The notes under the pieces were generated by a model. That model was given only the letters and a program-made list of their open reading frames with translations, had not been told where the DNA came from and ran no database searches. The position numbers and the translations under genes were made by a program. Positions 8,180-38,897 of a stretch of 64,000 nucleotides of DNA are shown here, piece after piece. This stretch comes from Leucoraja erinacea. Its lineage: Eukaryota. The DNA lies in the NCBI RefSeq assembly GCF_028641065.1, contig NC_073404.1:31434001-31498000 (forward strand). Direction: 5' to 3'. The stretch's first letter is position 1. Each line of letters opens with the position of its first letter.

Positions 8180-8722
8180 GGCGTGTGTCGGCACTGGGCC
8201 TGGACTTGTTGGAGTTTAGAAGAATGAGGGACCACATTGAAACATACAGAATAATGAAAGGCCTGTATAGATTGGATATGGCGAGGATGTTTCCACTGGT
8301 GGGAGAGTCTAGGACCAGAGGTAGCCAACTCAAAATTAAAGGAGTAGATAAGGGTTTCTACCGTCTGAAGAAGGGTTTTGGCCCGAAACGTCGCCTATTT
8401 CCTTCGCTCCATAGATTCTGCTGCACCCGCTCAGTTTCTCCAGCATTTTTGTGTACCTTCAAAATTAAAGGACGTTCTTTTAGAACGGAGGCAAGGTGGA
8501 ACTTCTTTAGTCAGAGGGAGTTAATCTTTGGAACTCATTGCCACAGAAGGCTGTGGAGGCCAAGTCAGCCGAGGCCAGGCAGAGATAGATAGATTCTTGA
8601 TCAGTACGGGTGTCAAGGGTTTTGGGGTGAAAGCAGGAAAATGGGGTTAGTCAGCCCTGATTGAAGGGCGGGATGGACTCAATGGGCTGAATGTCCGAAT
8701 TCTACTCCTTTAACTTGTGAAC
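8180..8722 (+). mobile_element. CR1 3' fragment carrying a nested hammerhead-like short repeat (8344-8458)
   Basis: The ORF reads ALGLDLLEFRRMRDHIETYRIMKGLYRLDMARMFPLVGESRTRG (CR1 ORF2 C-terminus). The insert is flanked by a TCAAAATTAAAGGA duplication. Confidence 0.85.
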
Positions 8723-9727
8723 TCAAAATATTAGCGGCTCTGATCTAAGATTTGACAAGAGGCCTCCACATTTATACCACATGCAAACTGAAGGAACAGC
8801 ACCACATATCCCGCTTGGGTAGCTTACAACCCAACTGCATCCCCTCTCCCTCCATCCCTTCCCAACCCTAGTCGTTCTACTAGTTATCACCTTCTCCACA
8901 ACCAACAACGGACCATTGTGAGCTCCACTTTTCCTTGATCATCGTTCCTGGCTTCGATTTGTCCTTTTCATACCATTCATTCATTTGTTCTTTGTACCTC
9001 GAAGGGCCGAATGGCCTACTCCTGCACCTATTTTCCATGTTTCTATGTGTAGGAAGGAACTGCAGATGTTGGTTTAAAGCCAAGGTAGACACTAAATGCT
9101 GGAGTAACTCAGCGGGACAGGCAGCATCTCTGTTTCTATGTTAAACCAGCACTTCTTAAACTGGTGAATGGTTCATCCTGGGGCCAATGAAATTATTTGT
9201 GGGTGAATGAAGGGTGAATTACTTAATTTATTCATATATTTATCCGAGAAAAAACCTGCAGTAATCAAAGCCGGAAAGTGTAGGATGGGGCTGAAGCCCA
9301 GTGGTTACACATTGCAATGGGTTTTATCATTCTAATAGAATGATTTTCCAACTCCAGAGGTAATTAAACTAATTTGTTTTTCACTCCTAGTTCATTCCAT
9401 TTTTAGGATGTTCAAAAAAGTTGAATAATAAACTTTTAGTTCATTTATGTTTTTTTTGCTCAAGTGACAAAATAAAATGATATATAAAATTCTACACAAG
9501 GGAGAATTAGACGGAAATGACCAAAAACAGAAGAACATTTGTCGAGGGTGACCGACACTGAAATAGTTGCCCAGCGTTGAACCAAACGTTCTGCAATGCT
9601 ACCACCTGCTGGCGTAACGATGAATCGCACCACAGATGTCAGGAGGCTAAAGTCAAGAGTATTGTGTTGTTACACGTCCGACAGAACAATGAACTTGTTA
9701 CTCGCAGCAGCACAAGACAATGGATAA

Positions 9728-9954
9728 AGGGCCTGTCCCACTTGACCATCTTGTCCGGTTATTGCCGGCGTCATTGACTGACGGACCAGGGTCGCCGAAA
9801 GATTTTGTATATCTCAAAATCCAGAGGTGACAAAAAAACGTTGCGACATTTGAGGAGACAGCGTGCGCCAATACGACGTCACGCCGCGCCGCCTGATACG
9901 TCAGTCAATGACGTCGTCAGTCGACGAAAATAATCGCCAAGTGGGACAGGCCCT
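9728..9954. mobile_element. PIF/Harbinger-type MITE (227 bp)
   Basis: TIRs AGGGCCTGTCCCACTT / AAGTGGGACAGGCCCT with a TAA duplication at 9725-9727 and 9955-9957. A TWA TSD is diagnostic of PIF/Harbinger. There is an extra internal inverted repeat CGTCATTGACTGACG / CGTCAGTCAATGACG. Confidence 0.85.
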
Positions 9955-10444
9955 TAAGGAACGGGGAACTGATTGTGGATGATCAGCCATGATCACATTG
10001 AATGGCGATTCTGGCTCGACGGGCCGAATGGCCTACTCCTGCACCTATTGTCTATAAGATGTAGGCACGAGGAACGACAGATGATGATTTACAAAAGACA
10101 CAAATTGCTGGAACTCAGCGGGTCAGGCAGCATCTGCAGAGAGAATGGACAGGTGACGTTTCGGGTCGGGACCCTTCTTCAGGTTGATGGAGTCGGGGGG
10201 GAGAAAGCTGGGAAAGAGGTGGGGCAAAAACTGGCCAGTGATAGGTGGATACAGGTGAGGGGTTGATTGGCAGGTGAGTGGAGTAGGTGACAAAGGCTCG
10301 AGGTGAAAAGGAGGTCAGATAAGGAGGTCAGATAAGGAGAGAAGTGTAATGTGAAGCTGGAGGAGGGAGGGATGGGGACGGGTAAACCGGGGGGGGGGGA
10401 GATAGGACACATGGGACTTGGTGATGGGAGATGAGTGTACAGAG

Positions 10445-10930
10445 GAGCGGCACGGTGGCGCAGCAGTAGAGTTGCTGCCTCACAGCGCCAGAGACCCGGG
10501 TTCAATCCTGACTACGGGTGCTGTCTGTACGGAGTTTGCACGTTCTCCCCATGATCTGCATGGGTTTTCTCCGGGTGCTCCGGTTTCCTCCCACACTCCA
10601 AAGACGTACAGGTACGTAGGCTAATGGGCTTTGGTAAAATTTGCAATTTGTCCCTAGTGTGTAGGATAGTGTTAAGGGCCTGTCCCACTTTCACAACCTA
10701 ATTCACCACCTTTTTTACTCGTGGACATTTTTCATCAGGCTAGAAAAACGCCCCGACCTACGATGGCACGAGTACCAACGACCCCGTGACGACCTGCCTA
10801 CGACCCCATGACGACCATGCTGCGAATACGAGTCGAGGGCAAACTCGGCAGAGGTGGTGAATTAGGTCGTGATAGTTGGACAGGCCCTTTAGTGTGCGGG
10901 GTGATCGCTGGTCGGCGCGGACTCGGTGGA
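10445..10930 (+). mobile_element. tRNA-derived V-SINE (HE1-like), interrupted by a MITE
   Basis: A-box-like TGGCGCAGCAGTAG, B-box GGTTCAATCC (~10499-10508) and V-domain-like TCCGGTTTCCTCCCACACTCCAAAGAC. Confidence 0.88.
10675..10888. mobile_element. PIF/Harbinger-type MITE (214 bp) nested in the V-SINE
   Basis: ~36-bp imperfect TIRs starting AGGGCCTGTCCCACTT with a TTA duplication (10672-10674, 10889-10891). Removing it restores the SINE sequence GTGTTAGTGTGCGG. Confidence 0.9.
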
Positions 10931-12357
10931 AGAAGGAACTGCAGACGCTGGTTTAAACCGATGATAAGACACAAAATGCTGGAGTAACTCAGCGGGACAG
11001 GCAGCATCTCTAGGGGGAAGGAAAGGCTGTTTTGCGCTACATTTCTACAGTGTAAAGATTAGTGTTTATGTTGGTGATTCCGTGGGGAACAGGCCCCTTT
11101 CTACACACAGCCTCTATTTGCCTCGTTCTGCTGCACACATCAACGTGGCGAATTTTTCAAACTGATGAAACGCTAACTTGTCGAAACCGGCCTGCATCCA
11201 GATCAGAGTGTCGGGGCAAGGTCGTGAACTCTGGAGAGGCCTGGGTAAACGCACAGCTCTGACGCATCCCCTTATCAGCGGGCAGATGAGAGGTGTGGAT
11301 AAGAGGGAGCTGCCCTTTCCAGCGGCCTGTCTGTGATCGGCATTCACCAGTGGCTCGTTTGTGAACTCTGACCTTTATCTCTTCAGCCTACAAATGTTTT
11401 TTTAGTTTTCAGAGATACGGTGTGGAAATAGGCCCTTCGGCCCATCGAGTCCATGCCGATCAGCGATCCCCCCCATACACTAGCACTATCCTATTCATTT
11501 AGTTTATTGTCACGTGTACCGAGGTACAGTGAAAAGCTTTTGTTGTGCGCTAACCAGTCAGTGGAAAGACAATACATGATTACAATCGAGCCATCCACAG
11601 TGTACAGATACATGATAAGGGAATAACATTTAGTGCAAAGTAAAGTCAACAAAGTCAGATCAAAGATAGTCTGAGGGTCACCAATGAGGTAGATAGTAGC
11701 TCAGGATCTCTTTGGTGACCCTTGCACTATTCTTGATCGGACTTTGTGGCTTTACCTTGCACTAAATATTATTCCCTTATCACTATTCCACTATATCAAT
11801 ATTAAGAGGGGTGTATATTGGTGGAAAAGAATGTAAGGGTTCTAGGTTTAAGGGGAAATATGCAATAGGAATCTCAGAGGCAGCTTTTTTCACACAGAAT
11901 CCTAAGATCAAGCAATGGGAACAGAATCGGGCCATTCGGCCCATCAAGTCTACTCCGCCATTTAGTCATGGCTGATCTATCTCTCCATCCTAACCCCATT
12001 CTCCTGTCTTCTCCCCATAATCCCTGACACCCGTACTAATCAATAATGTATCTATCTCCACCTTAAATATATCCACTGACTTGGAATGCACTGCCGTCTG
12101 TGGCAATTAATTCCCATTCCAGAATGATGTGTATATGGAACGAGCTGCCAGAGGAAGTAGTTGAGGCAGTTACTATAACAAAATGTAAAGTTATTTGGTC
12201 AGCTGCATGGAGAAGGAAGATTTGGAGGCAAAACGTGGGACTAGCTTAGATGGGGCACCTTGGTGGGCTTGCATGAGTTGGGCTGAAGGGCCTGTTTCCG
12301 TGCTGTGAGTATCTGCTTTAGCTGGGTGCGATTTCCTCTGCTTCTGCCCTAAATTAT

Positions 12358-12635
12358 GGGATGGCACAGTGTCGCAGCGGGTAGAGCTGCTGCCTCACAG
12401 CGCCAGAGACCCGGATTTGAACCCGACTCTGGGTGCTGTTTGTGTGGGGTTTGCACGTTCTCCCTGTGACCTCGTGGGTTTCCTCTGGGTGCTCCGGTTT
12501 TCTCCCGCACTCCTGTGTAGGGAGTGGATATGAAAGTGGGCTAACATAGAACTGGTGTGAAGGGGTGATCGATGGTCAGTATGGACTCGGTGGGCTGAAG
12601 GGCCTGTTTCCATGCTGTATCTCTAAAGTAAACTG
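12358..12635 (+). mobile_element. V-SINE copy
   Basis: Same tRNA-like head and GGGCTGAAGGGCCTGTTTCCATGCTGTATCTCTAAA tail. Confidence 0.8.
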
Positions 12636-13069
12636 AAGGGTCTCGACCTGAAACATCACCAATTCCTTCTCTCCAGAGATGCTGCCTGTCCTACTGAGTT
12701 ACTCCAGCATTTTGTGTCTATGTTCGGTTTAAATCAGCATCTGCAGTTCCTTCTTAAACTAAATTGGATATTCCTTGCATTCAGAAGCGAAATAAAGATC
12801 TAATAAGGTTTTCCTTTCATAGTAATCTAATTAAATAAGTAACTTTCAGCACAGAAGATGATAGGTTGTGCATTTGAACGGAACTCAAATCAATGGTTTT
12901 CCAATTTACAATATTTTACAGCAGACAATGAGAGTTTCACAAACAGCTGACAGATTCCCTGGAAACAAAATAATCTGTTCAGTTCAGCAGTCAATCAAAG
13001 CTTAAAAAAGGCTAATGCTGCAATAATAATTCAGAAACGCTCAGTACGAATAATTAACTCGAGTTCGGA

Positions 13070-13560
13070 CCATGACGTACGTATCCAGACATGACACACT
13101 GGTCAACCTGAGGAGCACCTTCAGCAACAGACTGGTTCCACCAAGATGCAGCACAGAAGATCTTTCTTCCCTGTGGCTATACAAACTGTACAACTCCTCC
13201 CCCTTCATGTCATGGGGTAGACTGAGACTGACTCCAGGACAAGGGGTCACAGTTTAAGGATAAGGGGGCAATCTCTGGAATCTCTGGAACTCTCTGCCAC
13301 AGAGGGTAGTCGAGGCCAGTTCATTGGCTATATTTAAGAGGGAGTTAGATGTGGCCCTTGTGGCTAAGGGGATCAGAGGGTATGGAGAGAAGGCAGGTAC
13401 AGGATACTGAGTTGGATGATCAGCCATGATCATATTGAATGGTGAATGGTGCAGGCTCGAAGGGCCGAATGGCCTCTACTCCTGCACCTATTGTCTATGT
13501 TTCTATGACTCGCACCACCCCAGTCTTTGTACATCCCTCAATCCTTTCCACTCATTTTAA
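13070..13560 (+). mobile_element. Rex1/Babar-like LINE 3' end interrupted by a CR1 3' fragment (~13235-13505)
   Basis: TLVNLRSTFSNRLVPPRCSTE followed after a frameshift by SFFPVAI.LYNS resembles the Rex/Babar ORF C-terminus. The middle portion matches CR1 tails. Confidence 0.6.
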
Positions 13561-13574
13561 TTTCATGTCTCATG

Positions 13575-14395
13575 TCAAGTCACAGTTATTTATATAGCAC
13601 ATTTAAAAAAACAACTCTCGTTGGCCAAAGTGCTTTGCATTTGTTCTAAGAATAGTATAAACAAACAAACTACATACATATATACATATAACCCTCGTTC
13701 AGTGGACGTCAGGAAAGGCTTGGGAGTATAGATAAGATTTTAGTCTTGACTTAAAGGAGTCGATGGAGGGGGCAGTTCTGATGGGAGGGATGCTGTTCCA
13801 CAGTCTAGGAGCTGCAACCGCAAAGGCGCGGTCACCCCTGACCATATGCCTAGACCGCGGGATATTCAGCAGCCCCAAGTCGACCGATCTGAGGGGCCTG
13901 GAGGTGGATTGGTGGGTGAGAATACTTTTAATGTAGGAGGGGGCAAGCCCATTGAGGGCTTTGTAGACATAGAGGAGGGTCTTGAAATGTATACGGAACC
14001 GCACAGGGAGCCAGTGGAGAGAGGCCAGGATCGGGATGATGTGGTCCCTTTTTCGGGTGCCCGTCAGGAGTCTCGCTGCGGCGTTTTGGACCAGTTGCAG
14101 GCGGGACAGGGAAGATTAGCTGATGCCAGTGTAAAGACAGTTGCAGTAATCTAGGCGGGAGGAGATAAATGTGTGGATGATCTTTTCGAGGTCATCAAAC
14201 TGGAGGAATTGTTTTATTTTAGCTATCGTCCGTAGCTGGAAGAAGCTAGCTTTTACCACGGCATTGACTTGTTTGTCAAATTTCAGTGCTGAGTCAAATA
14301 TCACGCCAAGGTTTTTGACGTGAGGTTTGAGTAGTGGGGTAAGGCTTCCAAGGCTGCCTGCTATCATTTTGATGAGTCCGAGGGGCTGAGAAGGA
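13575..14395 (-). mobile_element. L2-clade LINE, 3' ~820 bp
   Basis: ORFs 14116-14367 and 13699-14004 read VKNLGVIFDSAL, SRLDYCN, RFRIHFKTLL.VYKALNGLAPSY and GDRAFAVAAPRLWNS, all typical of L2 ORF2. The 3' UTR has AAAGCACTTTG...GTGCTATATAAATAA. Confidence 0.88.
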
Positions 14396-14709
14396 TGTAT
14401 CTTGTGCTTTGACTTGGCACATCAATTTCCCTCCTGGGATAAGTAAAGTTCTATCGTATTGTGGTGATGCTGCCTGACCCGTTGAGTTACTCCAGCACTT
14501 TGTCTTTTTTTTTGCATTGGACCTTGTTGGAACAGTGCATATAGTGATTGTCAGAGTCATACAGCATGCAAACAGGCCCTTCAGCCCAACTTATCCATTC
14601 CAAACCTGTCTAAGCTAGATCCATTTGCCCACACCTGGCCCATATCTCTAAAACCTTCCCATCCATGTACCTGCTTGAACGACCTCCATGGAAGGTAGAC
14701 AAAATGCTA

Positions 14710-15175
14710 GAGAAATTTGGCTCGGTGATCGCTTCACCCAACACTTCTGCACAGTTCCCAATAACCAACCTGATCTCCCAGTGGCTCAGCACTTCAACTC
14801 CCCCTCCCATTCCGAATCCAACCTTTCTGTCCTGGGCCTCCTCCATGGCCAGAGTGAAGCCCACCGCAAATTGGAGGAGCAGCACCTCGTATTTCGCTTG
14901 GGTAGTTTACACCCCAGTGGTATGAACATTGACTTCTCCAATTTCAGGTAGTCCCTGCTTTCTCCCTCCTTCCCCTCCCCTTCCCTTCCCAGCTCCCCCT
15001 CAGCCCACTGTCTCCGCCTCTTCCTTTCTTCATCCCACCCGACCCCCACATCAGTCTGAAGGGTCTTGACCCGAAACGTCACCTATTCCTTCGCTCCATA
15101 AATGCTGCCTCACCCGCTGAGTTTCTCCAGCATTTTTGTCTACCTTTGATTTTTCCAGCATCTGCAGTTCTTTAT
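14710..15175 (+). mobile_element. Penelope-like element 3' fragment (GIY-YIG C-terminus plus terminal repeat)
   Basis: LGDRFTQHF...PDLPVAQHFNSPSHSESNLSVLGL...KLEEQHLVFRLGSLHPSGMNIDF*. Confidence 0.88.
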
Positions 15176-15489
15176 GCAAATGCCTCCTTTGCAGCTCATT
15201 CCATGCGCCCAACACAATCTGTGTGGAAAAGCTATCTCTCAGGTTGCTATTAAATCTTTTCACCATCACCTTAAATCTGTGTTCTGATTCCCCTACTCTG
15301 GGGAAAAAGACTGCATCGCGGCAGTGACACTGCTCCAAGGACAGCCCCATCAATGTCTTGTACAATTGTAACGTAACACTCCCAACATTGGTCTCAATTC
15401 CCAGTTAGGGTCAGGCAGCCACTGAGGGAACGGGCAGGTGACGTTTCCGGTTGGAACTTACTGCATATGACTCATTACTTGGTTCATAA

Positions 15490-16110
15490 ATTCATGTGAT
15501 AGGAGCAGAATTAGGCCATTCAGCCCATCATGTCTACTCCACCATTCAATCATGGCTGATCTATCTCTCCCTCCTAACCCCATTCTCCTGCCTTCTCCCC
15601 ATGACCTCTGACACCCGCACTAATCAAGAATCTATCTATCTCTGCCTTAAAAATATCCATTGACTTGGCCTCCACAGCCGTCTGTGGCAAAGAATTACAG
15701 ATTCATCATCCCCTCTGACCAAATAAATTCCTCATCTCCTTCCTGAAGGAATGTCCTTTTATTGTGAGGCTGCGACCTCTAGTCCGAGACACTCCCTCTA
15801 GTGGAAACATCCTCTCCACATCCACTCTACCCAGGCCAGTTTCATTCACTGTAGCCCAGAGTGTTTTATTGTCACGTGCCCCAGATAGAACTGTGACATT
15901 CTTACTCGCAGCAACATAACTCAATGATGGCCCCCCCCTAATCCTTCTAAACTCCAGCGAGTACAGGCCCAGTGCTGTCAAACGCTCATCGTATGTTAAC
16001 CCACACATTCCTGGGATAATTTGTGTAAACCTCCTCTGGACCCTCTCCAATGCCAACACACCCTTCCTCAGGTATGGGGCTCAAAATTGCTCACAATTTG
16101 GACCCAATAT
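15490..16110 (-). mobile_element. CR1 3' fragment
   Basis: ORF 15706-16059 reads LALERVQRRFTQIIPGM.GLTYDERLTALGLYSLEFRR. Confidence 0.85.
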
Positions 16111-16332
16111 CACTTTTGTCATGAATTAAAAGAAACTCGCCCCCAGTCAATGTTACATTCCTTTACAAATTATTCCCATTACTATTCTGTCAACTATTTG
16201 TCCAGATATTTTTATATAAATATTTTTCCATTAACAGCAATCTTGTGGTCAGTTCTTTGGTCACAAGGTTTGCATTCTCCATGCTGAGTATTATAAATTG
16301 TCCATGCTGAAAATCATATTCCAACCTACTGT

Positions 16333-16633
16333 TTAGTTTAGAGATACAGCGTGGAAGGAAACAGGCCCTTCGGCCCACCAGGTCCGTGCCTACCAGCAAT
16401 CACCCCGCACACTAACACTATCCTACACACTAGGGACAATTTTATCGAAGCCAATTAATCTACAAACCAGTACGTCTTTGGCGTGTGGGAGGAAACCGGA
16501 GCACCCGGAGAAAACCCACACAGGTCACAGGGAGAATGTACAAACTCCGTACAAACAGCACCCGTAGTCAGGATCGAACCTGGATCTCTGGCGCTGTGAG
16601 GCAGCAACTCTACCGCTGCGCCACTGTGACGCC
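16333..16633 (-). mobile_element. V-SINE, full length
   Basis: The reverse complement shows GTGGCGCAGCGGTAGAG (A box), GGTTCGATCC (B box), the V-domain and the tail. Confidence 0.88.
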
Positions 16634-18301
16634 CAAATAATGCTGAGAAATGATCTCAGAGCAATCTCGAGCATTAACTGTAATCCACACTTCTGAGAAC
16701 TAGTTTACCAAGGTTTGGTACAATTTCACAAGAATAATTCCAGAGATGAACGACTTTATATGCAAAAGGCTAAATTGTAAATTCTCAGCATTCTCAGCTG
16801 AGTAAGTTAATTTTATGCATATCATAAAGTGTTGGAATAACTCAACGGGTCAGGCAGCATCCCTGGAGGTCATATTTCAGGTCAGGACCCTTTTTCTGAG
16901 GAAGGATCTGATCCGAAACATCATCTGTCTATTTCTCTCCACCTCACTGTGACAGAGTATGTTAGGATATTATGTTACATTATGTATAAGACGTTGGCAA
17001 GGCAGCACTTGGAGTATTGCGTTCAGCTTTGGTTACCATGCCACAGGAAGGACGGTGCCAAGAGTACGGAGAAGATTTGAGGATGCTGTCAAGACTCGAG
17101 GGCACAAGCTACAGAAAGGTTGGGCGGGGTAGTACTTCATTCCCTGGAGAACAGGAGGAAGGTGATCTTATAGAGTACAGGAATCAAGAACTGGAGGACA
17201 TGGGTTGAAGACGAGGGGGGAAAGGTTTAATACGAACCAGAGGTGCAACTATTTCCACAGAGGGTGGTGGGTGTGTGCAAGGTAGTTGAGCCAGGCACTA
17301 TTACATGTAAACGACATTTGGACAAGTACATGGATAGGAAAAGTTTGGAGGGAAGATACACAAAATGCTGGAGTAACTCAGCGGGACAGGCAGCAACTCT
17401 GGAGAGAAGGAATGGGCGACGTTTTGGGTAGAGACCCTTCTTCAGACATGGGCCGTATGCATACAGGTTGGGTCTAGTGTGGTTGGGTCATCTTAGGCTG
17501 AAGGGCCTGTTTCCGTGCTGTATGATCCCATGACTGTTTTGCTGTAGATTCAAGCATCTGCAACTTCATTTTATGCATCTGCAATTATTACTAGCTGAGC
17601 TAGGGGGAAACCAATACCCATTAAATGTTGTGGAAGGAACTGCAGATGCTGGTTTAAACCGAAGATAGACACATAAAAACGGGAGGAACTCAGCAGGAGT
17701 ATCTATTGTGCCCAATCAAATACTTCCACTTTCAAGACTAAAAATATCCCTAATTTTGCCATTTCACAATTGTTACTATTGCAACCTTTAAGACACATTT
17801 ATACAGGTACATGGATAGGACAGGTTTAGAGGGATTCTGGTCCAAAAGCAGGCAGGTTGGACTAGTGTAGATGGGACATCTTGGCGGGCGTGGGAAAATT
17901 GGACCCGTTTCCACAGTGCACGACTCCATAGACACAAAACGCTGGAGTAACTCAGCGGGACCGGCAGCATCTCTGGAAAGAAGGAATGGGTGACGTTTCA
18001 GATCGAGACCCTTCTTCAGACCCCCATGTTAATTTACAAGAAACTTGTCACAAGGTACTGCCTAGCTGGTTGCATGTAGCATAACCTCACCATTGGCACC
18101 CTCATCATCACTTCAAATATGTCAAAACCACAGCTTTAAATGCTTTGCTCTGTATCAAGATCAGCCTGAATGCATACATTTTGCACAGGCATGCGTTAAG
18201 TAAACTATGCTTCTAATGAGCAACTTCCATTTCTGCACTACAGGTCCATGTTATTGATGCCCTCTCCACAGATGTCAACCAACCCATATACAGTATCTGT
18301 T

Positions 18302-18549
18302 TAAGAAGGAACTGCAGATGCTGGAAAATTGAAGGTACACAAAAATGCTGGGGAAACTCAGCGGGTGCCACAGCATCTATGGAGCAAAGGAAATAGGCGA
18401 CGTTTTGGGCTGAAACGTTGCCCATTTCCTTTGCTCCCTAGATGCTGCTGCATCCGCTGAGTTTCTCTGCTGCACCCACTGAGTTTCTCTGCTGCACCCG
18501 CTGAGTTTCTCTGCTGCACCCGCTGAGTTTCTCCAGCATTTTGTGTACC
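18302..18549. mobile_element. Head-to-head (palindromic) insertion of the Penelope-terminus repeat with internal 22-bp slippage repeats
   Basis: Inverted arms are centred at ~18408 and flanked by TACAGTATCTGTT at 18289-18301 and 18550-18562. Confidence 0.8.
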
Positions 18550-19139
18550 TACAGTATCTGTTGATTTTACACTTCATTTTCACAGCCCAATCATTTAAAT
18601 TCAAGTAAAACACTTCTTGCAAACTTTACATACGAAAAGGAAATCGCATGCAAGTTTTGAAGAAAATAAATTGTAGCCCCTGGAATCTTAAAAACACCAA
18701 ATGCTGGAGGAACTTAGTGGGTCAGGAAGCACTGTAGAGGGAAATGGACAGACAATGTTTCCTGCAACATCGGGCCTTCTGAAAATGTAGCGCCATTCCC
18801 TCCAGATGCTAGACACAAAATGTCTGAAGGAGATTCTCAACCAAAAACTTCACCTATTCTTTTTCTCGAGATGCTGCCTGACCCGCTGAGTTACTCCAGC
18901 TTTTTATGGTGGTACATTTGAGTCTGAAGGGTCTCGACCCAATATGTCGCCTATTCCTTTCCTCCATAAATGCTGCCTCACCCGCTGAGTTTCTCCAGCA
19001 TTGTCTACCTTCCAGCTTTTTGTGTCTAACTTCGGTGTAAAACTGCATCTGCAGTTCCCTCCTACCTTCCACAGATGCTGCTTGACTCACCTCTGGCACT
19101 CTGTTTTGTGGCCATGTTCAGCTCTCTCTGCCATCGGGA

Positions 19140-19420
19140 AGGTGTGTAGGCATCCGAAAAACTGTCCCCCAGGTCCAAGAACAGTGTCTTCCCAGCAACC
19201 ATCAGGTTACTGAACACTACAAACTCAAACTAAACTACGAATCACAAACTATCACGGGTGCACTAATCACTTTGGGGTTTATTTTCCCTACTAATATTAC
19301 TGTAGTTAAAATGTTGCTTATTATGTTATCGATGAATACTGTACTTACAGACCAATGTTGCTGCAAGTTAGAATTTCAGTGTTTTGTTTTCATAATCATA
19401 CATATGATTGAAACACTCTT
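19140..19420 (+). mobile_element. Rex1/Babar-like LINE 3' relic
   Basis: CCATCGGGAAGG...AGGTCCAAGAACAG..TTCCCAGCAACCATCAGGTTACTGAAC (PSGR...R.KNS.FPATIRLLN). Similar relics lie at ~29545-29790 and ~55337-55385. Confidence 0.55.
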
Positions 19421-19470
19421 TGACACTTGTTGTGGAATTAACTGTTAATCATTTCAAAAATGGATTGCCA

Positions 19471-19729
19471 AGTTTAGAGATACGGTTCGGTGACAGGCCC
19501 TTCTGCCAGAGGCCATGCCGACTAGTGATCCCCGTACACTAGTTCTATCCTACACCAAGGACAATTTAGAAGCCAATTGACCTACAAACCTGTACGTTTT
19601 GAATGTGGGAGAAAATCAGACGCAGGTCACAGGGAGAACGTACAAACTCCATACAGACAGCACCCATAGCCAGGATCGAACCCGGGTCTCTGGCGCTGTG
19701 AGGCAGCAACTCTACTGCTGTGCCACCCA
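19471..19729 (-). mobile_element. V-SINE copy
   Basis: B box GGTTCGATCC on the minus strand and a body matching other copies. Confidence 0.8.
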
Positions 19730-20340
19730 TAGTTTTTAGCTTCTTAATTAAACCAGTAGTGGCAATTCTTTTATCAACAAATTTGATAAACACAGAACCC
19801 TTGTGCAGGGTCTCATTCCTTCTATCACCCATCTATTCCCACTACAAACACTGCCTGACCTGCTAAGTCCCTCCAGCAGATAGACACAAACTGCAGGACA
19901 GGCAGCATCTCTGGAGAGAAAGAATGGGTGACGTTTCAGGTCGTGACCCTTCTTCAGCATCCAGTTTCCTTCATTACTCCTCATTTACATGAAAATGTTA
20001 ATTTTCTCAAACGTCTCATTTCTTTCATTAAATTATTTTAACTTTAACGTGGCAAAAAGTCAACGCGACTATTTTTTCCCTTCAATCTATCCATCAGGTT
20101 AATTCAGGTGTGCATCTAGTTATTCCCTTCCCCTCAATGCAATGCTGCAAGCTTGCATATTCAACATCACTCCTGCTTCATTGACATTTTAGTTATTGTA
20201 ACCCATCGAGCCACAGCTGAAACTTTAGAAATGCAGATGTTTGATTTAAACACAAAAGTATGTATGTCTAAAATCACACTCCTAGCCTCTGAGAATTGAT
20301 ACCAAGAATACCCACGATAAACAAGTGATGGTGATTAATA

Positions 20341-27700: not shown

Positions 27701-27753
27701 TCATTGACCAGGACGGTCCATAGATTCATCATAAGTAACTACTCTCGAAGGAT
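27701..27753 (-). CDS. NUFIP2: NUFIP2 coding exon 4 (last): (D)PSRVVTYDESMDRPGQ*
   Basis: Acceptor TTTTTATTTCAG and phase 1. It matches the human C-terminus DPKRIITYNEAMDSPDQ*. TGA is at 27703-27701. Confidence 0.93.
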
Positions 27754-28562
27754 CTGAAATAAAAACAGAAATGTTTATCATGTAGATACACGTACTTCAA
27801 TGTGCAATTATAAAATCAAATCATTCATTACAATTATACATCTTCATTGATGATTTAGTAAGAATTAATTCTAATGTTGAATGTTGGACTAGATCCAATT
27901 CACAAGGAACCACAATTCCACAGAATATTCCAATCCAAATACAGTATCAAACAAATCTTGTTGCAAACCAGGAGGGATATCTTTAGCCAGATGGTGGTGA
28001 ATCCGTGGAATTGCCACAGGTGGCTGTAGATGCCAAGTCATTGGGTATTGTTTACAGCAGAGATTGATAGTTCTTGATTAGCAGGAGTGTCAATGGTTAC
28101 AGGGAGAAAATGGGGTTAAGAGGGAAAAAAAGACTGGTCATAATCGACGCAGACTCGATGGGCTGAATGGCCTAATTCTGTTACTAAGTTTTATGGTCTA
28201 ATGAAAGAGGAAAAATCAGAGTAGATGGCAGTTTCAGCCAGTTTATGAAAGAGGAACCAAGCTTGGTTCTCCACTCTCCGTTGTGGTATCAATCTATCCA
28301 CGTTCACATCATATAAACAATTTATAACTTAAAACTAAGTAACTTGTAAAATGACAATGCTGGAATAATTCACAGGTCAGACAGCATCCATGGAGAACAT
28401 GGATAGGTAGATAGATTGATACCACGCCGCGACCCTTCTTCAGACCGTTGAGTTACTCTGACACTGTGTTCTTTAGGCCGACTAAGTAACATGCATTTCA
28501 TGCTGACACTATATTGCACCTTAATTGAAAATTGAATGCTCGAAATTTTTAATTGCAATTAC

Positions 28563-28595
28563 CTTGTTTATGCAGGTTCCATATAGAGTCCATTT
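28563..28595 (-). CDS. NUFIP2: NUFIP2 coding exon 3 (33 nt): (E)MDSIWNLHKQ
   Basis: TCTTTTGTTTTACAG acceptor and AAG|GTAATT donor. It matches human EMESIWNLQKQ. Confidence 0.93.
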
Positions 28596-31500
28596 CTGTA
28601 AAACAAAAGAGGTGCAATCAAAAACGAGCCATAATTTATCTTTTCAAATTTTCTGAAAGATGCACAGCAAAAGGCAATGTAATTGGCTGTGGGATTCATT
28701 TTACTCATTTCCAAATAGCAGTATAGTACAGCACCCGTCTGCACAACTTATTATAGAAAGACATACTTGAAAAGTGATGCACAGGCAAAAATTACAAATC
28801 GCTTTTACTAATCATGGAAATGTTTGACCCGTTACATATCTAAAACACAAAAAATATACAAGATAAGTAAAACTGAATGATTTTGTTGGAGCTTTTAATA
28901 TTGAAAGACATCAATTTGTTGTGCAATTAATATCAAGTAAAACATGTACAGGAGATAATTTGGCCATCATACCCAATCTGAATGCACAGGTGAAATTTTA
29001 CAGTACAATGCTCGAAGCAAAATGTAAACAAGTTAACTCTCTTCTGTCACACTGAGATAATATATAATTTCCAGAGAAAATTATGAATCTTCCATCAGAT
29101 TATTTTGCCAATTAGCTTCTGCTTACTAACATGGAGAACTTTGCCTCAACATTCATATGCCCACTTACAAAATCTTCTGTTCATTTATTCTGCTCTAAGT
29201 TAAGAATCCTCTCTTCTACTGAACACTCTTATGGCAAGTCCAGTTTCCTCTACACTCTCTCCAAGGCCTTAAATCGATGCAAAAAGCAATATTCCAGCTG
29301 ATGCCAAATTAAAAATGTATAAACTATTACCATAATTCCACAGAATCCCATGAAACTTTCCAATTTGTACACATTATGCAATGATGGGCATTGGATTTAA
29401 TGCATGCAAATTTCAATTAAGACAAATTCTTGCAATTTACTAGATTGGAAACAAGTTACACTGACCCGAAGCTCTATAATCCTCACGGTTTAGAAAAGGT
29501 TAAAAATAACAAATTCTCAAACATGAATTAGTCAACTTCACCAGGCACTCTCTTCAGAATTGAGATACGATGTCCAGGTTCAGGAACAGCTTCTTCCGTC
29601 AGGCTAATGAACACTGCAAACTCCAACTCATCTATAAATTTGCACCACGGACTTTGATTTGTTTTGCACTATAGTTGATTTTTAAATTATCTTTTCTGTT
29701 TACATTATCTACTGGATACCACATTTACAAACCCATTGTGCTGCTATAAGTAAGAATTTAAATATTCCCTTTTGTTATATATGACAAAAGACTCAAATGC
29801 TCCCACAATATGATGTGTAACTCACATCTAAAATTGGAGATGATATCTGCCTTCATCGTACACATTGAGGGATTCAATTAGTCTCAAACACAACCTTGAT
29901 CAAAACATTTAATGTTCTGCAACATTCAATACTATATCTGATGATTAGACATTCAGTTGTTTAAAGATTCTTGGAACGAAATTGGAACTCCAATGATTAA
30001 AACATGCCTTTGTTTTAAAAAGAGCCAGTCTCATTGAAATAAGTGAATTTATAGCCTCAATGCAAAAATCTACTGAAATACATCTCAGACTAGAGGACCA
30101 GCCATTAATGGCCACATGAGAATAAAACTTTGAGGCTGAGTATTTGATGCTCCTACCCCAGCAGCTGTGAATTCTCAGCCATCAATTAAATTCAAGTCCA
30201 ACACTGGTTGATGGCTTTGCTCCCGATGGGAATCTAGAGTTGTGGAAATGGAATAGGAAGACAGCGACATGGAAGTTCAGCCACAACATCAAGTGGCTGA
30301 GTATGCTCCAGGGGCCATGCACCCCAAATTTTAATCTAATTTCCATCCAATACATTTAGGTCAATAAGACAACTTCAAATAATACAATCCATTGTTGTGG
30401 CGTTGCATTAATGAGCCCACAGATCTGGAGCAAAGAAATGCATTGTTCCAATCCCAGTATACATGACAATTAAACACCTGACTCGAGATGTTTGATTTAC
30501 AAGTCAAGTGATATGATGCGAGTGTGGTTGAAGCAGACTCGAGACCAGCAATGAACTCATTGAACGGTGATTTAAGGGGCTGAGAATGTTTCTTAGGTTC
30601 AGTTAAAGGATATCTATACAAGAACAAAAAGAATACTCCCCAGACAACGAGTTAGAGTAAAATGAGGATAAGAAAATGGTGTATCCATGATGACAACTTA
30701 AAATGGAAAAAACACATTAGAGTTAAAGGATTCGAGGAGAGATTGGTTAGACAAGTGTTTTTGCATTGACTGAATGAGAAAGGAAATTAATATTAAAAAT
30801 CTGAAATTAAATGCTGGAAATACCAAACAAGCGGGACAGGCAGCATCTCTGGAGAGAAGAAATGGGTGATGTTTCAGACCCAACCCGTCACCCATTCCTT
30901 CTCAGTTTAGCTCAGTGAAAACAGATTCCAATAACCTGCACTTGTGTTAGTTGTTTATTTCTAAAGCTCCACTTTCCCAATGTTTGCTTTGAAGTAGTCC
31001 TGCCAAGGAGCAAAATGTTTTTTGGTCTTAAATGTAGAAATCTGTTTGAGTATGAAATACAAATATGATAACAGCTTTAACAATTTAATACTTTAAACTA
31101 TTTGCACAAACTTTCACAGCTAAACGATTTTATCCAATAATTGCAAGAAAACCAAGGTTTGATGATATCAAACAAGCTAATGAGTCTGAAGGGTCGCAAC
31201 CCAAAACGTCGCCTTTTCCTTCTATTGAGAGATGCTGACTGTCCCGCTGAGTTACACCAGCTTGTGTATATCTTCAGTCTGAACGACTGCATGGAGTGTT
31301 GTAATTGGCAAGTGTCAGAGGTTAAGAGAAAAAGAATATGATGCTTGCTGACACATCATGGATTATTAGTAAACACATGAATCAAATATTCATCGCCAAA
31401 ATCATTTGTACATGGCCAGAAATGAACAATGCCGATCTGCCGGGGCACTGAATGGGTAACCAACTCTGAACTAGTTAGCACTTCCAGGGAAAGGATCATT

Positions 31501-32806
31501 GAGTACATTTCCACAGATGCATTTCCTCATTAGAAAGATAAGCACCAAGATTGCCAAGTGATCCTTGACCAAAATAAAGTCCATCTTTTGGCATATGTGT
31601 GCATTTAAAGATAGGCAGACTACAAGGAATAATGTTATACAACTGAGCAAATTCAGATTCTCACTAACTAATCCACTAATATTCAGTTGCCTTTTGCCAT
31701 TGAAAATAGGATCAAAGCACCCACAACAATTATCCATAATCCTTGTCAGGGTTAGTCTTTAATGGGTCTACAATTGTTAACATTCACTCAAACCTGTATA
31801 AAAAAACCCTCTGAAATCTATGCACATTTGCTGTTCTTATTCCTTTGCCGGAACAATTTGAGGGGAACATTTTTAACCAGGAAGAGAGAAACAGTCTGAA
31901 GAAGGGTCTCAACACCCATTCCTTCTCTTCAGAGATGCTGCCTGTCCCGCTGTGTTACTCCAGGTTTTTGTGTCTATCCTCAGAGAGAAACAAATCCTCA
32001 TTTCATATACAAAACTTTGATTTCTAACACCACACAAATGGAGATGCAATTTCTTCCTCTGAACCCTAGCAAAGCCACTGGTACACTAAAGCACTGCCTC
32101 CTATTTGCCCTGAAGGAACTAAAAATACGAGAAATGTTTATTCCTTTGGCCTGGGCAGAAGCAAATGTCCAGCTTTAATTAAACCAAGGTGTATCTGGCA
32201 TTAATGTGAAATACTGTACATTAACATTCTAGACCTAAAACTAATTAGTAACTGAATAAAAATAAATCTCAATGCGTCGCCATGCAGAGATGATCCACAA
32301 ATTATGGGGGGGGGGGGGGGGGGGAAAAATTGCAATCTTCCAGAATGCAAGGCCATGTCAACTGCTCATACATCAAGAACCATTAGGAAAAAGAGTGTTA
32401 ATTACTTTTGTGTACATAAACTCTACGAAAGTCAGGGCTCTCACTTAACTTTTTTTCCCCTGTTGCCAGCTGGGCAACCTCGGCAGCTTTTTAGGTTGCC
32501 AAATGACAGTTTAGGTGGTCATTTAAGACGGCTTGCATGATGCGTGCGATAATGTGGTTGGACGAAGTGCGTAGTTACTAGTCGGAATTATGGTCAATAA
32601 AGCATTCGCATATTATTTCTGCTTCAAATAAAGTCACAAACTAAACATATTCACCAACCAAGACATGATATATACCACAATGACATGTAGCAAAATTACA
32701 ATACAGTATCTCAACTCTTTTTACACGTTGCAAAGAATGCAATTTCTATTATCTTTCCACTTCCAAACAAAAATCTGGTTGGATTATTCAGCATATGATC
32801 AACCTC

Positions 32807-33935
32807 GGTGAGACCAAGCGCAGGCTTGGCGATCGCTTCGCACAACACCTCCACTCAGTTCGCAATAACCAACCTGATCTCCCGGTGGCTCAGCACTTCA
32901 ACTTCCCCCTCCCATTCCGAATCCGACCTTTCTGTCCTGGGCCTCCTCCATGGCCAGAGTGAGGCCCACCGCATATTGGAGCAGCACCTCATATATTGTT
33001 TGGGTAGTTTACACCCCAGAGCTATGAACATAGGCTTCTCCAATTTCAGGTAGTCCTTGCTTTCTCCCTCCTTCCCCTCCCATTCCCAGCTCTCCCACAG
33101 CCTACTGTCTCCGCATCAACCTTTCTTTTTCCCGCCTACCCCCTCCCGACATCAGTCTGAAGAAGGGTCTCGCCCGAAACGTCGCCTATTCTTTCGCTCC
33201 ATAGATGCAGCCTCACCCGCTGATTTTCTCCAGCTTTGTCTACCAACGGGATCCCACCACTGGCCACATCTTCCCATCTCCTCCCCTGTCGGCTTTCTGC
33301 AGAGACTGCTCCCTCCATACCTCCTTGGTCAATTCGACCCTTCCCACCCCCTCTCCTGGCACTTTCCCATGCAACTGCAGGAAATGTTACACTTGTCGCT
33401 TTACCTCCCCCCCTGGACTCCATTCAAGGACCCAAGCAGTCTTTCCAGGTACGCCAGATGTTCACCTGCACCTCCTCCAACCTAATCTAATGCACCCGCT
33501 GCTCTAGGTGTCAGCTGCCCTACATCAGTGAGACCAAGCTTAGGCTTGGCGATCGCTTCGCCCACCACCTCCGCTCGGTTCGCAATAACCAACCTGATCT
33601 CCCGGTGGCTCAGTACTTCAACTCCCCCTCCCATTCCGAATCCAACCTTTCTGTCCTGGGCCTCCTCCATGGCCAGAGTGAGGCCCACCATAAATTGGAG
33701 GAGCAGCATCTCATATTTTGCTTGGGCAGTTTACACCCCAGCGGTATGAACATTGACCTCCAATTTCAGGTGGTCCCTGCTTTCTCCTCCGCTTCCCAGG
33801 TCTCCCTCAGCCCACCGTCTCTGCCTCTTCCTGCACCCTCACATCAGTCTGAAGTCTACCCAAAACGTCGCCCATTTCCTTCGCTCCATAGATGCTGCCT
33901 CACCCGATGAGTTTCTCCAGCATTTTTGTCTACCC
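32807..33935 (+). mobile_element. Penelope-like element, partial-tandem (pseudo-LTR) insertion, degraded
   Basis: Two successive copies of the GIY-YIG region. The second includes the Cys linker TFPCNCRKCYTC and FQVRQMFTCTSSNLI...RCSRCQLPYISETK.RLGDRF. Each copy ends in the terminal repeat. Confidence 0.9.
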
Positions 33936-35159
33936 ATTCACACGTTCTGTTATCCCACTTTCCTCACCCACTCCCTACACATTAGGGGCAATTTTACAGA
34001 GACAAGTTAACCTACAAAGCCAATGCGTCTTTGGAATGTGGGAGGAAACCCACATGCAAATTCAACAGTGCCAGAGAACAGGAGCGAACACAGCTCTGGC
34101 GTGTGAGGCAGCAAGTCCATCAGCTGGGCCACTATATTTTATTTTCCAACACACAAAAAATTATACATTGATAACTTTGGTTACTAAAAAAAAACTATCC
34201 ATTTTCAGCCTTAAATCTAAGTGACCCTATGTCCCCCTTTACAGCTACTGTATGTTTTAATTCAGTTCAAGACTATGGAGCAGTACATTGGCCATAGGTT
34301 TGCAAAATTAAACTAACCTTCACTCTTTTTTGCTCACCACCATGCATAGAAACAAAGTGGGAGCAACAAATACTAATTTGGGAAGTTTCTCTCAGTTATC
34401 TGGATTAATACAAGGCAATATTCAACAGTGATGCTCAACTCCCAGTTCTGTTCATAAAAGGCAACCAGCACCTCCAAAACAGGATGAGAGCAATACCACC
34501 ATACAAACAAAATCAATGATCAATTGTATTCTGGTATCAGATTTTCCCATAAGAATCATTGCAGTCACACACCCAAGCAGATCGACACAATAATAAACCC
34601 ACAGTCAATTCACGTGGAAACTTAGGACACGTATCAAACTAACTATTCCTGTGTTAACCAAAGCAAAATGCTAGTAGACTTGCTACTTCAGCTCCAGGTA
34701 ACACCCGGAGCTCTGTGGAGTCTGCACATTCTACCTTGGAATGTAACAAAGGGGGGGGGGGGGGGGGGGGGGTCCCTTTTCTTCCCATATCTGCATCAGA
34801 CCAATATTCTTCCTAATTTATCACATAACACTTCACTTCCATGTGCCCAATGGAGTGAAACTAATCTACAGCACCAATGGGAAAATATCTAATTTTCACT
34901 ATCTCCATGTTTGATTTCTGTACGCACTCCTTGATTTGCATTTCCAAGTCCCAAGTCAACATCGACCTGTTCAATGAGACATATGACAAAGCACCTTACA
35001 ACTAACATACAAGAAACGATCCTCAACTAACCACTGCGCAACAACTCCTGACTACAAATGTCCATGTGTGACCATGGAAAACTGAGCAATTCCCACATCC
35101 CACCTTTTGGTAAAGGCAGACACCCATGATGGAAAGCAAACTCAATGCTAGCAATTACT

Positions 35160-35870
35160 TCAAGAGGGCTTGTATACTAAAAAAGGGTTGTAATGTTGAG
35201 ATTGTATGAAGGGTCTCGACCCAGAACGTCACCCATTCTTTCTCTCCATAGTTGCTGCCAACAACTGAGTTACTCCAACATTTTGTCTACTTGAAATGTC
35301 GAGGCTAAGGTGCTGGTAAGGCCACATTTGGAATATTGTGAGCAATTTTGGGCATCATATCAGAGGAAGGATGTGCTGGCTCTGGAGAGGGCCCAGAGGT
35401 GGTTTACAACAACGATCCCAGGAATGAGTAGGTTAACCTATCGTAAGAGTTTGTCAGCACTGGGCCTGTACTCGCTGGAGTTTAAAAAAATGACAGGGGA
35501 CCACAGAAGGCAGCGAATCTGTGAAATTCATTGCCACAAGGGCTCTTAAAGCTATGGGGAGAAGGCAGGAACGGGGTACTGATTGGGGATGATCAGCCAT
35601 GATCACATTGGATAGCAGTGCTGGCTAAAAGGGCCAAATGGCCTACTTCAGGACCTATTGTCTATTGTCAAAGAGGGGCGTGGAGGCTAAGTCAGTGGCT
35701 ATTTCTACGGTGGAAATTGATAGGTTCTTGATTAGTAAGCATGTCAAAGGTTTTGGGGAGAAGGCAGGAGAATTTGGTTTAGAGGGAAATGTAGATCAAC
35801 CATGATTTAATGGTGGCGTGGACTTGATGGGGCCAAATGGCCTAATTCTGCTCCTACTACTTGTGAAATC
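35160..35870 (+). mobile_element. CR1 3' fragments
   Basis: ORF 35310 reads LVRPHLEYCEQFWASYQRKDVLALERAQR. Confidence 0.85.
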
Positions 35871-36417
35871 TTTGAGATGTTCAACATCAAAAGATCTAGC
35901 CTCCACACAAGAAATGTTCACGTGTATCAGTTTTACATGAACTGCCCTTGCATTGTAACTGCATCCCCTTGTTCAAGACTCCACCACCATATCTCAACAT
36001 CCTTCCTGGCTAGGATCCCCTTAGGATCTTATTTTGAGTCGGGTCACCTTTCATTTGTCTAAATTCAAGGAATACGGACCCAAACTTTTTAGCCTTTGAT
36101 GGGACAACTCTAGTAGCAGGAATGAGCCTGCTGAATCTCAAGGTTACCCCTGGGTCCTAGACTGTAGCAAGATAAATAGCCTCTGTAACAATCCTAATTA
36201 GTCTTCTGAAACTCCTCTCCCCTAATATTTTTCAGACTTCATTTGATATTAACTGATCCTGCAGACATTTTGTTACCCTTGCATCAACCACACAAATCCA
36301 TATTGTTTCCCTAACAGGCAAGCAAATTTTGCCTTCGACAGAGACTGAAGCTTGTAGTTGTATACAAAGATGTTATCTCCCCCAGTGCCCTGAACAAGTA
36401 CACAGCATTTCTTGTTC

Positions 36418-36544
36418 AAGAAGGAACTGCAGATGCTGGAAGATCAAAGGTACACAAAAATGCTGGAGAAACTCAGCGGGTGCAGCAGCATCTATGGAGC
36501 GAAGGAAATAGGCGACGTTTCGGGCCGAAACCCTTCTTCAGACT
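36418..36544 (-). mobile_element. Solo 127-bp hammerhead-like short element with 13-bp TSD
   Basis: GCATTTCTTGTTC at 36405-36417 and 36545-36557. The minus strand begins AGTCTGAAGAAGGGTTTCGGCCCGAAACGTC. Confidence 0.85.
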
Positions 36545-38897
36545 GCATTTCTTGTTCCTACACTTTTCCTAGCAATAGAGGCCAGATTGAAATTATTTTT
36601 TCCTGACGAAATTTCTATTTTCTTTCAAATGTTTGCTGTGCCTGTGAAACGGCACCCTGAACATCAACTCATTATACCCATACACCAACATCAGGTTCTC
36701 AGCATTTATTTTTCCTACCAAAGCAAACAACACATTATGTGACACCTGCAAATTTGTCTCAGGCACTTTGCATCCATTTCTCAGCTCGTTTTCCCACTTA
36801 GCATCAGTGAAACTTGCAACATTTTATTGTATGTAGGTAAAAACATTTGCACAAATGGGAAATATTGACATTTTCCAGCTCTGAACTCCCAGCTGACAAC
36901 AGATAGGAAAGGATGCCACCAGCAAGAAGGAAAAAGTAAACTAGCAGGACTTCAATATCACACACAAGTTTAATTATTGTATTTTAACCCATACACAGAA
37001 GAAAGGTGAACTGAAATAGACCGTCATTTGTCTCAGCAATTTACAGCTATTCAAACTTATATTCCTCACTAGTTCAGAGTTTAATTGGAATCTGTTCATG
37101 TGTCTGAAGAGGAGTCTCGACCCGAAGCGTCACCCAATCCTTCTCTCCAGAGATGCTGCCTGTCCTGCTGAGTTACTCCAGCTTTGGGTCTATCTTCGAT
37201 TTAAACCAGCATCTGCAGTTCCTTCTTACACAGATACAACCTATATCGCAGCTTTCCTGCACCACTCTGACAATTTGGTGCCATGAGGTTGTAAGAGGCC
37301 AACTTTATTTTTGTCAATAAGCATGACCAATAAAAACATGCAAATTGAATGTCATTAACATCCAGGGGCCATTTTGATTCCTGCTCCTTACAGACCATTG
37401 CCTCTTTCTACTCGGGGAAAGTCCAGGACAATAATCTTATGGGTAAAGGCAGCTAATGAACAGAAGCAAACCTTAACACTTGTGGCAGCCACTCTTTAAT
37501 ACATCACCATTATAGCAAATCAAAGCTATGCAAAAGCTAACAGTTTAAATTGGAATATATTAATAATCACAAATGTAAACTCCAGTTGCCTATCAAGTTG
37601 CTTTGATGGTTGTCATTAAAGAATGCCCTTACCTGCGTACTCTTGAATAACAGAATTATGATACAATAGACCGTTACTTTGACCCACCAAGTCCATGATC
37701 ACCTGTTCAAATTAGATCCATGTTACTCTACTTTCTTATCCACTCCCTACACATTGGGGCAATTTTACAGAGGCCAATTAACCTCCAAACATACATGTCT
37801 TTGGCATATGGGAATAAATCAGAGCACCTGAAGCAAATCCACATGGTCACAGAAGGAACATGCAAATGCTACCCAGCATCTGAGGTCAGGATCAAATCAG
37901 TCATTGGCACCATGAGGTTGCACCTATACCAGCTGTGCTCTTTATACTGCAGGATGAAGCCTCATTCTACAACTGGCAGCACCAAAAATCCTTGCTGACT
38001 GCACAATTCATTAAAGATTTTAAACTAAAATTAGGAACCCTAACTGGGATCTTGCAGTAGATACTCTGATCCAATATGTAAATATAAAAGCTCCTTTGTT
38101 TCAACCAAGCTCCAACTGAAACTTCCTGTCAGGAAATGAGATGCATTTCAGTGCGTAGGTGCCAAATGCACTGCCTGCCCTCAGCACAAGTGTCGTGGGG
38201 GGGGGGGGGGGAACTTGTTTCTTCTATGCCACCCCACAACTTACGCCTCAATCCCATAAACCCACAATAACCAATTTTGAATGAACAATTAGTCTCCGCA
38301 TTCCTTTTGAGTACAGAATTTCAAAGGCACAATGGGATGTGGTGCAAGGTATACAGATCAAAATGTATCCAGGTTTAATACCACCTAATTGTAATTTTAA
38401 CAATCTCAGCTAGAAGTGTCTAATGCTATTGTACGCAATATTTTCAGTGCACTCATTGCTCACCATACTTGAACATATGACAATAAATTCAACTCGACAA
38501 CATCATGGCTGCACGGTAAAGAGAAGAAATATTCAATCGAGGTTTCTAACAAATTGCCCTGCTAGAAACATGCAGCCATGCCAGGTACATAGTCAGATTC
38601 CATCAAGCCGCACACAAAGTGGAACGAACACGCATCTGGCATTTAAGAATAAAACAGGAACAACACAAGAACGATTTCTTGATAGGTTTCACACTGCCAA
38701 GGTAACATTTGATATGCTTACTGGGACAACATTCCCTCTAATAGCCATACTCCAAATGGCAGTGGCTTGAACCTATTACTTGCATAGATGTTTTGATTCC
38801 CAATATAAATGGACACCAAGGTGAACAAAGTCTTGAGATTAAGTGTATTATAGCATATAATTTCCATTTGTGTGAAAACACTATTTAAAAATATTAC

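Follow-up and report, generated by a model that had tools for sequence, protein, structure and literature searches.

The closest described systems for a short repeat dispersed through a 64,000-nucleotide stretch of the skate Leucoraja erinacea (RefSeq assembly GCF_028641065.1, contig NC_073404.1, positions 31,434,001 to 31,498,000 of the forward strand, hereafter the window) belong to the Penelope-like elements (PLEs). Neptune-type PLEs (PMC8557442, PMC3846280) share with the skate element the reverse transcriptase (RT), a CX2-5CxxC linker, a GIY-YIG nuclease with an internal CxxC, and a hammerhead ribozyme located in a pseudo-long terminal repeat (pseudo-LTR). Heavy 5' truncation, partial tandems, head-to-head inversions with palindromic junctions, an optional tail of 30-40 nt at one end and duplications of 8-13 nt are also common to both. 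The difference lies in the commonest product, which in the skate consists of ribozyme-headed stubs with a sharp 5' peak, a feature not found described in the available portions of those two papers.

PAc, a Poseidon element of the green anole (PMC11167929), resembles the skate element by its internal starts ~120 nt after the hammerhead core, by the two start sites that define the tail, by its AT-rich targets and by the use of an uncleaved RNA template. It differs in belonging to another clade that is devoid of the linker finger, and no 5' pile-up is described in the available text, although figure S2 of the same paper, on genomic coverage, may already show such a peak. This sole in vitro study leaves the steps after initiation unvalidated.

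The minimal hammerheads of PLEs (PMC4209133) have, as in the skate, an extra base after A9, a G-C pair at the base of helix II and a palindromic helix III, and most of them are single dispersed motifs considered 'probably related to truncated PLEs'. The skate motif is set apart by a helix I of only 2 bp, as in D. virilis. The survey, in the portions available, includes no mapping of insertion ends. Animal non-LTR retrozymes (PMC7229834; bioRxiv 10.64898/2026.07.22.740005) are likewise non-coding, carry a type I hammerhead, are kin of PLE pseudo-LTRs and can occur as monomers, but they are defined in those sources by a tandem arrangement in which every unit carries a complete ribozyme, and by the occurrence of small circular RNAs. 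The skate copies, in contrast, are dispersed, have fixed linear ends and are mixed with copies linked to an open reading frame (ORF).

A further parallel is the minus-strand strong-stop DNA of LTR elements, which is primed near the 5' end of the RNA and then runs off it. The skate stubs would combine the same priming and run-off, in a version that is target-primed and directly integrated, with neither tRNA primer, LTR nor integrase. In the literature outside subscription papers and repeat databases, neither a 5' stop at the ribozyme nor this skate repeat was found described; the repeat is very probably annotated as Penelope in repeat databases. What is reported here is a known element class with an apparently undescribed, quantifiable 5' stop.

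The unit, its insertion and its parent element

A profile built from one solo copy, i.e. a copy free of ORF sequence, was searched across the window and yielded 67 matches of a ~125-nt unit, covering 8.8% of the window with a density of stubs close to one copy per kilobase. Positions are numbered from the C of CTGA (+1). A preliminary description of the window had reported five copies bracketed by direct repeats, and each pair is indeed identical and exact; repeat matches of at least 11 nt arose by chance in 11 of 3000 random placements in comparable windows. Four sequencing runs were then compared with the window over 31500-36900. In X14, a relative diverged by ~5%, a 1141-nt contig joins 35836-36405 directly to 36546-36900, which is the exact empty site, where the 127-nt unit and one of the 13-nt repeats are missing. 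In X1, nearly identical to the window, the insertion is present and contigs enter the 36405 unit from both sides. The 36405 repeat is thus a true target-site duplication, and an empty site, which had been suggested as a check, is found. Since the 31883 copy is present in both runs, insertions of more than one age are represented. Independent insertion by a Penelope-type machinery, as had been proposed, is supported by this empty site and by the location of the unit after the GIY-YIG end in ORF-linked copies.

The solo at 8330 was said to lie inside a CR1, where its 14-nt repeat is exact and the matching sequence occurs once in another CR1 copy (15768, minus strand), but 19 extra bases separate the left repeat from the unit. 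The repeats around the headless copy at 9038 are exact as well but constitute weaker evidence, being placed at a CR1 3' end and having an internal 8-nt period similar to that of CR1 tail repeats, and they may be partly microsatellite. The copy at 18289-18562 is not a solo, as first thought, but a head-to-head inverted pair whose arms join within the helix II palindrome, and the 31883 copy has lost the GAAAC-GTC part of its ribozyme. Exact flanking repeats of at least 11 nt accompany nine of the 67 matches, four being the listed solos and five artefacts of a tandem array at 62.2-62.9 kb. Clean duplications are in a minority (four of 55 non-array matches, plus the 18289 pair); they are A-rich, and defined junctions show 1-2 nt of microhomology. 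The unit is also frequent at CR1 3' tails, as seen from joints of 35856 to 36413-36421 (8-17 contigs per joint, two runs) and from further copies at 9038, 10060 and 12633, which suggests that these tails are a preferred target. The skate unit motif had no match in the viral, genome and metagenome collections, and no RNA holder of the unit appeared among the indexed runs listed. Summed contig depth on the unit is ~10 times that of the GIY-YIG part, a ratio that is not a copy number and was not used as evidence.

The head of the unit, with a CUGANGA/GAAA/UH core, matches the minimal hammerhead descriptor of Cervera and de la Pena (PMC4209133) and is a putative ribozyme of the minimal type I. The motif at 36512-36543 has a 2-bp helix I, a CUGAAGA core, an extra A, a 4-bp helix II with a UUCG loop, and a palindromic ACGU. 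Helix pairing holds in 89.8% of cells across copies, versus 3-48% in slid controls, whereas covariation does not exceed that of shuffles (equalled in 247 of 500), the copies being decaying relatives. Shuffled sequences fold as well as the unit (z -0.25 to +0.86), and an Rfam search gave no match at gathering thresholds. The copies at 15056, 18924, 31186 and 49020, solo and ORF-linked alike, have lost the same 3 nt from the AAG repeat of the core. A permuted ribozyme, with a second cut site just upstream of the core, was rejected, the spacing not being conserved among linked copies.

In six ORF-linked copies, one of which (57800) is split by another insertion, the GIY-YIG coding end is followed by a pyrimidine tract of ~80-240 nt and then by the unit. 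The GIY-YIG peptide of the window has its best matches in Leucoraja, Rhinoraja and Hypanus proteins (54-74%). The annotated stingray protein P0004 matches the Pfam GIY-YIG family weakly (E 8e-4, under the curated threshold) and has relatives with RT and HTH domains, while no Pfam match was obtained for the window's own short protein fragments. Before the nuclease stands a CX4CxxC linker whose cysteines are invariant in protein alignment A2. Such a linker (CX2-5CxxC) occurs in Neptune and Nematis and is absent from Penelope/Poseidon (Craig et al. 2021, PMC8557442), and the parent is therefore assigned, from the linker and without an RT tree against named references, to endonuclease-bearing (EN+) PLEs of the Neptune/Nematis type. 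The Penelope attribution first made is accordingly right as to a Penelope-like element with GIY-YIG, but not as to Penelope/Poseidon proper. Other traits of EN+ PLEs are found here: a hammerhead in a pseudo-LTR after the ORF, the optional tail of 30-40 nt, partial tandems and inverted copies. An ATG near +50 might serve as ORF start, but its frame is not kept open and none of the fetched proteins begins in that way.

Two side observations concern the coding part. P0004 continues with unrelated residues past the point corresponding to the ORF stop (tract 33050-33155), and the GT donor of the tract may be in use there. RNA reads on the ORF part 32767-33852 come mainly from the strand opposite to that of a neighbouring same-strand CR1 (~2:1 in X22, more in X23), possibly through selection against sense copies inside genes.

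Solo and ORF-linked copies share their lineages. On a tree of 36 copies (20 solos, 93 columns, rough support values), the solo/linked label changes 12 times, against a shuffled mean of 12.0, and a constraint grouping the solos in one clade is rejected (p-AU 5.8e-53). The comparison of solo and ORF-attached copies called for earlier thus yields interspersion without a solo clade, apart from one three-member clade that has no linked member in the window. Because the solos are interspersed, the separate non-autonomous family of retrozyme or SINE (short interspersed element) type put forward in the preliminary description is not upheld.

Copy ends in two lineages

The 3' ends of the 55 non-array matches form two groups ~30 nt apart, with 25 at profile positions 84-110 and 22 at 119 or beyond, one in between and seven shorter; the 18289 pair combines a long arm with a short one. 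In the anole element, the optional tail was attributed to reverse transcription starting at two internal sites (Frangieh et al. 2024, PMC11167929), the main one lying 111-118 nt into an ORF whose start codon is just preceded by the ribozyme core. By analogy, the two skate groups correspond to this known tail.

A set of 50 5' ends was curated in the window, with inverted partners counted and fragments and the tandem array left out. Twenty-three fall at -6..+3, ten extend 30 nt or more into the tract, 17 are internal to the unit and -7..-30 is empty. The edge zone is thus occupied ~20-fold above background (23 observed, 1.7 expected, p 2e-22), and 14 of its 23 copies begin at -2 or -3, as had been noted from the frequent starts 2-3 nt before CTGA. 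Of the two readings first offered, that of a strongly preferred 5' end point is borne out. Ordinary truncation had been expected to leave smooth 5' ends with solos interspersed; interspersion is what the tree gives, but the ends are piled up. The mismatch between these ends and the predicted cut after GTC, for which an explanation had been sought, is what would be expected if the template were mostly uncleaved, since uncleaved RNA was the main substrate of the anole element in vitro and no RNA reads ended at the cut (PMC11167929). A reverse-transcribed cap G was considered and rejected, as G precedes four of ten AGT-starting solos, which is not above chance.

A protein alignment search brought together 90 related loci (80 of 531 metagenome matches and 10 from genome records). 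They contain 31 minimal hammerheads, many of them ~100-140 nt beyond the nuclease, and an AG preceding the core is not conserved. One family, F1, is animal-type DNA lying inside bacterial genome bins and is taken here as a related invertebrate family; its downstream unit is homologous to that of the skate. The bins concerned (L081-L138) include many contigs of animal-type retrotransposon DNA, apparently host contamination. Viral contigs gave no relative by protein alignment and no match to the F1 motif.

The F1 set comprises 34 distinct copies from L081-L138, collected by two motif scans blind to the 5' end and completed by loci L081-L090. Its 3' ends again form two groups, 15 at +91..+104 and 17 at +144..+152, where the reference stops, with two elsewhere. 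Thirteen 5' ends lie at -14..-3, 11 at least 70 nt upstream and ten inside, one of the latter being probably a chance match. The pile-up is therefore present in a second lineage (13 of 34 against 1.8 expected, p 3e-9; 11 of 22 with inverted pairs counted once, p 1.5e-7). A TATA-like motif stands at -39/-37 in all nine long F1 copies inspected. With the usual TATA-to-start spacing of 30-31 nt, the F1 start is predicted at -9..-7, and most ends at -14..-7 resolve to -8/-7 when read at junctions. Two copies start exactly at the predicted ribozyme cut (+29; p ~0.01 if uniform), one of them, L130, with a 13-nt duplication, and these fit run-off at an RNA end. Three F1 head-to-head pairs have duplications of 13-14 nt.

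Origin of the stubs

The solos are separately inserted end-pieces of a Neptune-type element and, on balance, rather probably run-off products of uncleaved RNA. Internal initiation at two sites and the uncleaved main template would be as in the anole element in vitro. The protein of the element would nick A-rich DNA and start reverse transcription ~95 or ~125 nt downstream of the hammerhead core, on an uncleaved RNA whose predicted 5' end lies immediately ahead of the ribozyme. The enzyme would then run off the RNA 5' end in a strong-stop-like halt. The pile-up presumably marks this RNA end, chiefly the transcription start, at an initiator-like A at -3 in the skate and ~30 nt after the TATA in F1, with some trimming to the edge of helix I; each solo would then be an integrated run-off product. 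Joining of the halted cDNA to the target would give a solo and joining to a second cDNA a head-to-head pair, whereas copies that bear the tract and the ORF would come from longer templates (read-through or tandem RNA). Solos would mostly be dead ends, as they are devoid of upstream promoter sequence and of whatever follows the start site. Promoters are known in pseudo-LTRs (PMC2377424), where a TATA and an initiator-like motif have been noted (PMC3846280).

Several points weigh against this scheme. The skate ends were read partly by eye and 1-2 nt of microhomology blurs their positions; the modal end, -2, is one base inside the predicted -3 and coincides with the edge of the 2-bp helix I. Four of the 34 F1 copies start at -3, the edge of their 3-bp helix I, rather than at the predicted start, and the L131 target is homologous to that of L091, so that the two may not be independent. 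No full-length element is present in the window, and sequence past +125 is thus not seen. In two RNA runs (~6% and ~1% of reads) there is no place where many molecules begin or end, and none of the loose ends among those listed (9706 more exist) falls at the ORF-linked -3 position; the libraries used rarely keep 5' ends, are dominated by read-through and are unfit for mapping capped or small RNAs. Transcription of D. virilis Penelope starts ~120 nt upstream of the ribozyme (PMC2377424, PMC4209133), and the geometry is hence not universal.

The ends at -2 in the skate and -3 in F1 would suit a 5' end set by the ribozyme itself or by a bound protein, through 5'-to-3' decay to helix I or a block to reverse transcription, and the anole protein does help its hammerhead to fold (PMC11167929). 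This alternative is nevertheless unlikely, as more F1 ends lie at -8/-7 and track the TATA box rather than the helix, helix I is short (2-3 bp), and shuffles match the unit in folding.

Ordinary truncation on a long unspliced RNA, whether by a block in the tract, a 3' splice site (CAG before TCTGA) or microhomology trimming, deserves slightly less credence still. The GT...AG tract at 33050-33155 adjoins the ribozyme like the D. virilis intron (PMC4209133), and the A-rich duplications and junction microhomologies would be in keeping with trimming. F1, however, has the same pile-up without AG before the core, copies 49020 and 3623 have no GT donor, the window yielded no spliced copy, and none of the 15 joints listed, out of ~2700, is a splice joint.

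A self-propagating non-autonomous family, of retrozyme or SINE type, in which solo templates are copied by the protein of the element, is improbable. The ~2 to 1 excess of solos over ORF-linked copies in the window and a young clade (8363, 36543 and 18420, support 100/95) with no ORF-linked member there speak for it. But the solos form no clade, and their upstream flanks are unlike one another. Scanning with the usual Pol III box patterns found no exact B box in any of five window copies, only one-mismatch matches at differing places, in line with the earlier remark that no such boxes are visible. No tandem of complete ribozymes occurs in the window, where copies are dispersed and a 66-nt array (62.2-63.0 kb) is devoid of CTGAAGA and helix II. 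Among the aligned RNA reads, 94% and 81% in two runs run on into unlike sequence, and reads of the unit are strand-balanced in X22, as expected for passive read-through; no unit-size linear or circular RNA was seen, in libraries of a kind that loses small RNAs.

That solos are left over from recombination or deletion of longer insertions, as proposed for rotifer solo pseudo-LTRs without duplications (PMC3846280), is very improbable even though most copies have no clean duplication, because several solos have a duplication immediately at either end, deletion would not halt time and again at -2/-3, and the exact empty site refutes it for 36405.

Other features and significance

The features of the unit and its parent element are collected in Table 1; TCAGTC was read there against the initiator consensus. 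The window further includes a long tandem repeat array at 1-1875 and the large coding exon of NUFIP2, an ordinary host gene (38884-40647, minus strand; Pfam PF15293, E 8e-209). At 62183-62989, a 66-nt tandem array is derived from the unit but has no ribozyme core, and a young-subfamily copy is inserted into it in inverted orientation; 3438-3624 contains a version of two units. The young-subfamily inverted insertions at 18401-18420 and 62644-62675 are separate, and both turn at the helix II palindrome.

Table 1. Coordinates of features of the unit and its parent element in the window.
Feature	Position	Strand	Basis
Left target-site duplication, 14 nt, within CR1	8330..8343	+	Exact repeat; single copy in other CR1
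19 extra bases between duplication and unit, origin unexplained	8344..8362	+	
Solo unit, start -2, short 3' end (~+95)	8363..8458	+	
Right target-site duplication	8459..8472	+	Exact repeat
Headless unit (~+46 to +127) between 11-nt repeats, CR1 3' end	9038..9141	-	
ORF-linked copy: GIY-YIG end, pyrimidine tract, unit with long 3' end	14614..15175	+	
Head-to-head inverted insertion, 13-nt duplication	18289..18562	both	Minus arm with long 3' end, plus arm with short 3' end
Solo unit at 31894-31981, part of ribozyme core deleted, flanked by 11-nt duplication; also in X14	31883..31992	+	
Partial tandem, upstream copy: GIY-YIG end, tract, hammerhead, short 3' end	32723..33243	+	
Partial tandem, downstream copy: RT-EN linker, GIY-YIG end, tract, unit with short 3' end	33244..33934	+	
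Pyrimidine-rich tract after ORF stop	33050..33151	+	Bounded by GT...AG as 33050-33155; putative intron
TCAGTC, initiator-like; A at -3 is the predicted transcription start	33152..33157	+	Sequence
CX4CxxC linker motif (Neptune/Nematis marker)	33370..33396	+	Definition in PMC8557442
Target-site duplication, left copy, 13 nt	36405..36417	+	Exact repeat; empty site
Solo unit, 127 nt, start -3, long 3' end	36418..36544	-	Empty site
Putative minimal type I hammerhead, predicted cut after 36514	36512..36543	-	Descriptor of PMC4209133
Target-site duplication, right copy	36545..36557	+	Exact repeat; empty site
Longest 5'-truncated ORF-linked copy: late RT region to long 3' end, broken ORF	47936..49142	+	

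For the family as a whole, the chances stand about even that Neptune-type elements, in animals as far apart as skates and marine invertebrates, prime reverse transcription close to the 5' end of their own mRNA, with an integrated strong-stop stub as commonest product, whose 5' end is the transcription start. Such a process would create a SINE-sized repeat without a SINE lineage; the rare copies starting at the cut would record cleavage in vivo, and full-length or tandem copies would need read-through RNA or a template jump. The 5' stop bears on how PLEs finish a copying round and form their pseudo-LTRs, a fixed stop at the predicted transcription start giving a genome-scale readout of template ends. 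Stubs of this kind can be mistaken for SINEs in annotation or can swell copy counts and, if the scheme is true, many of the single minimal hammerheads of animal genomes would be explained without retrozyme families.

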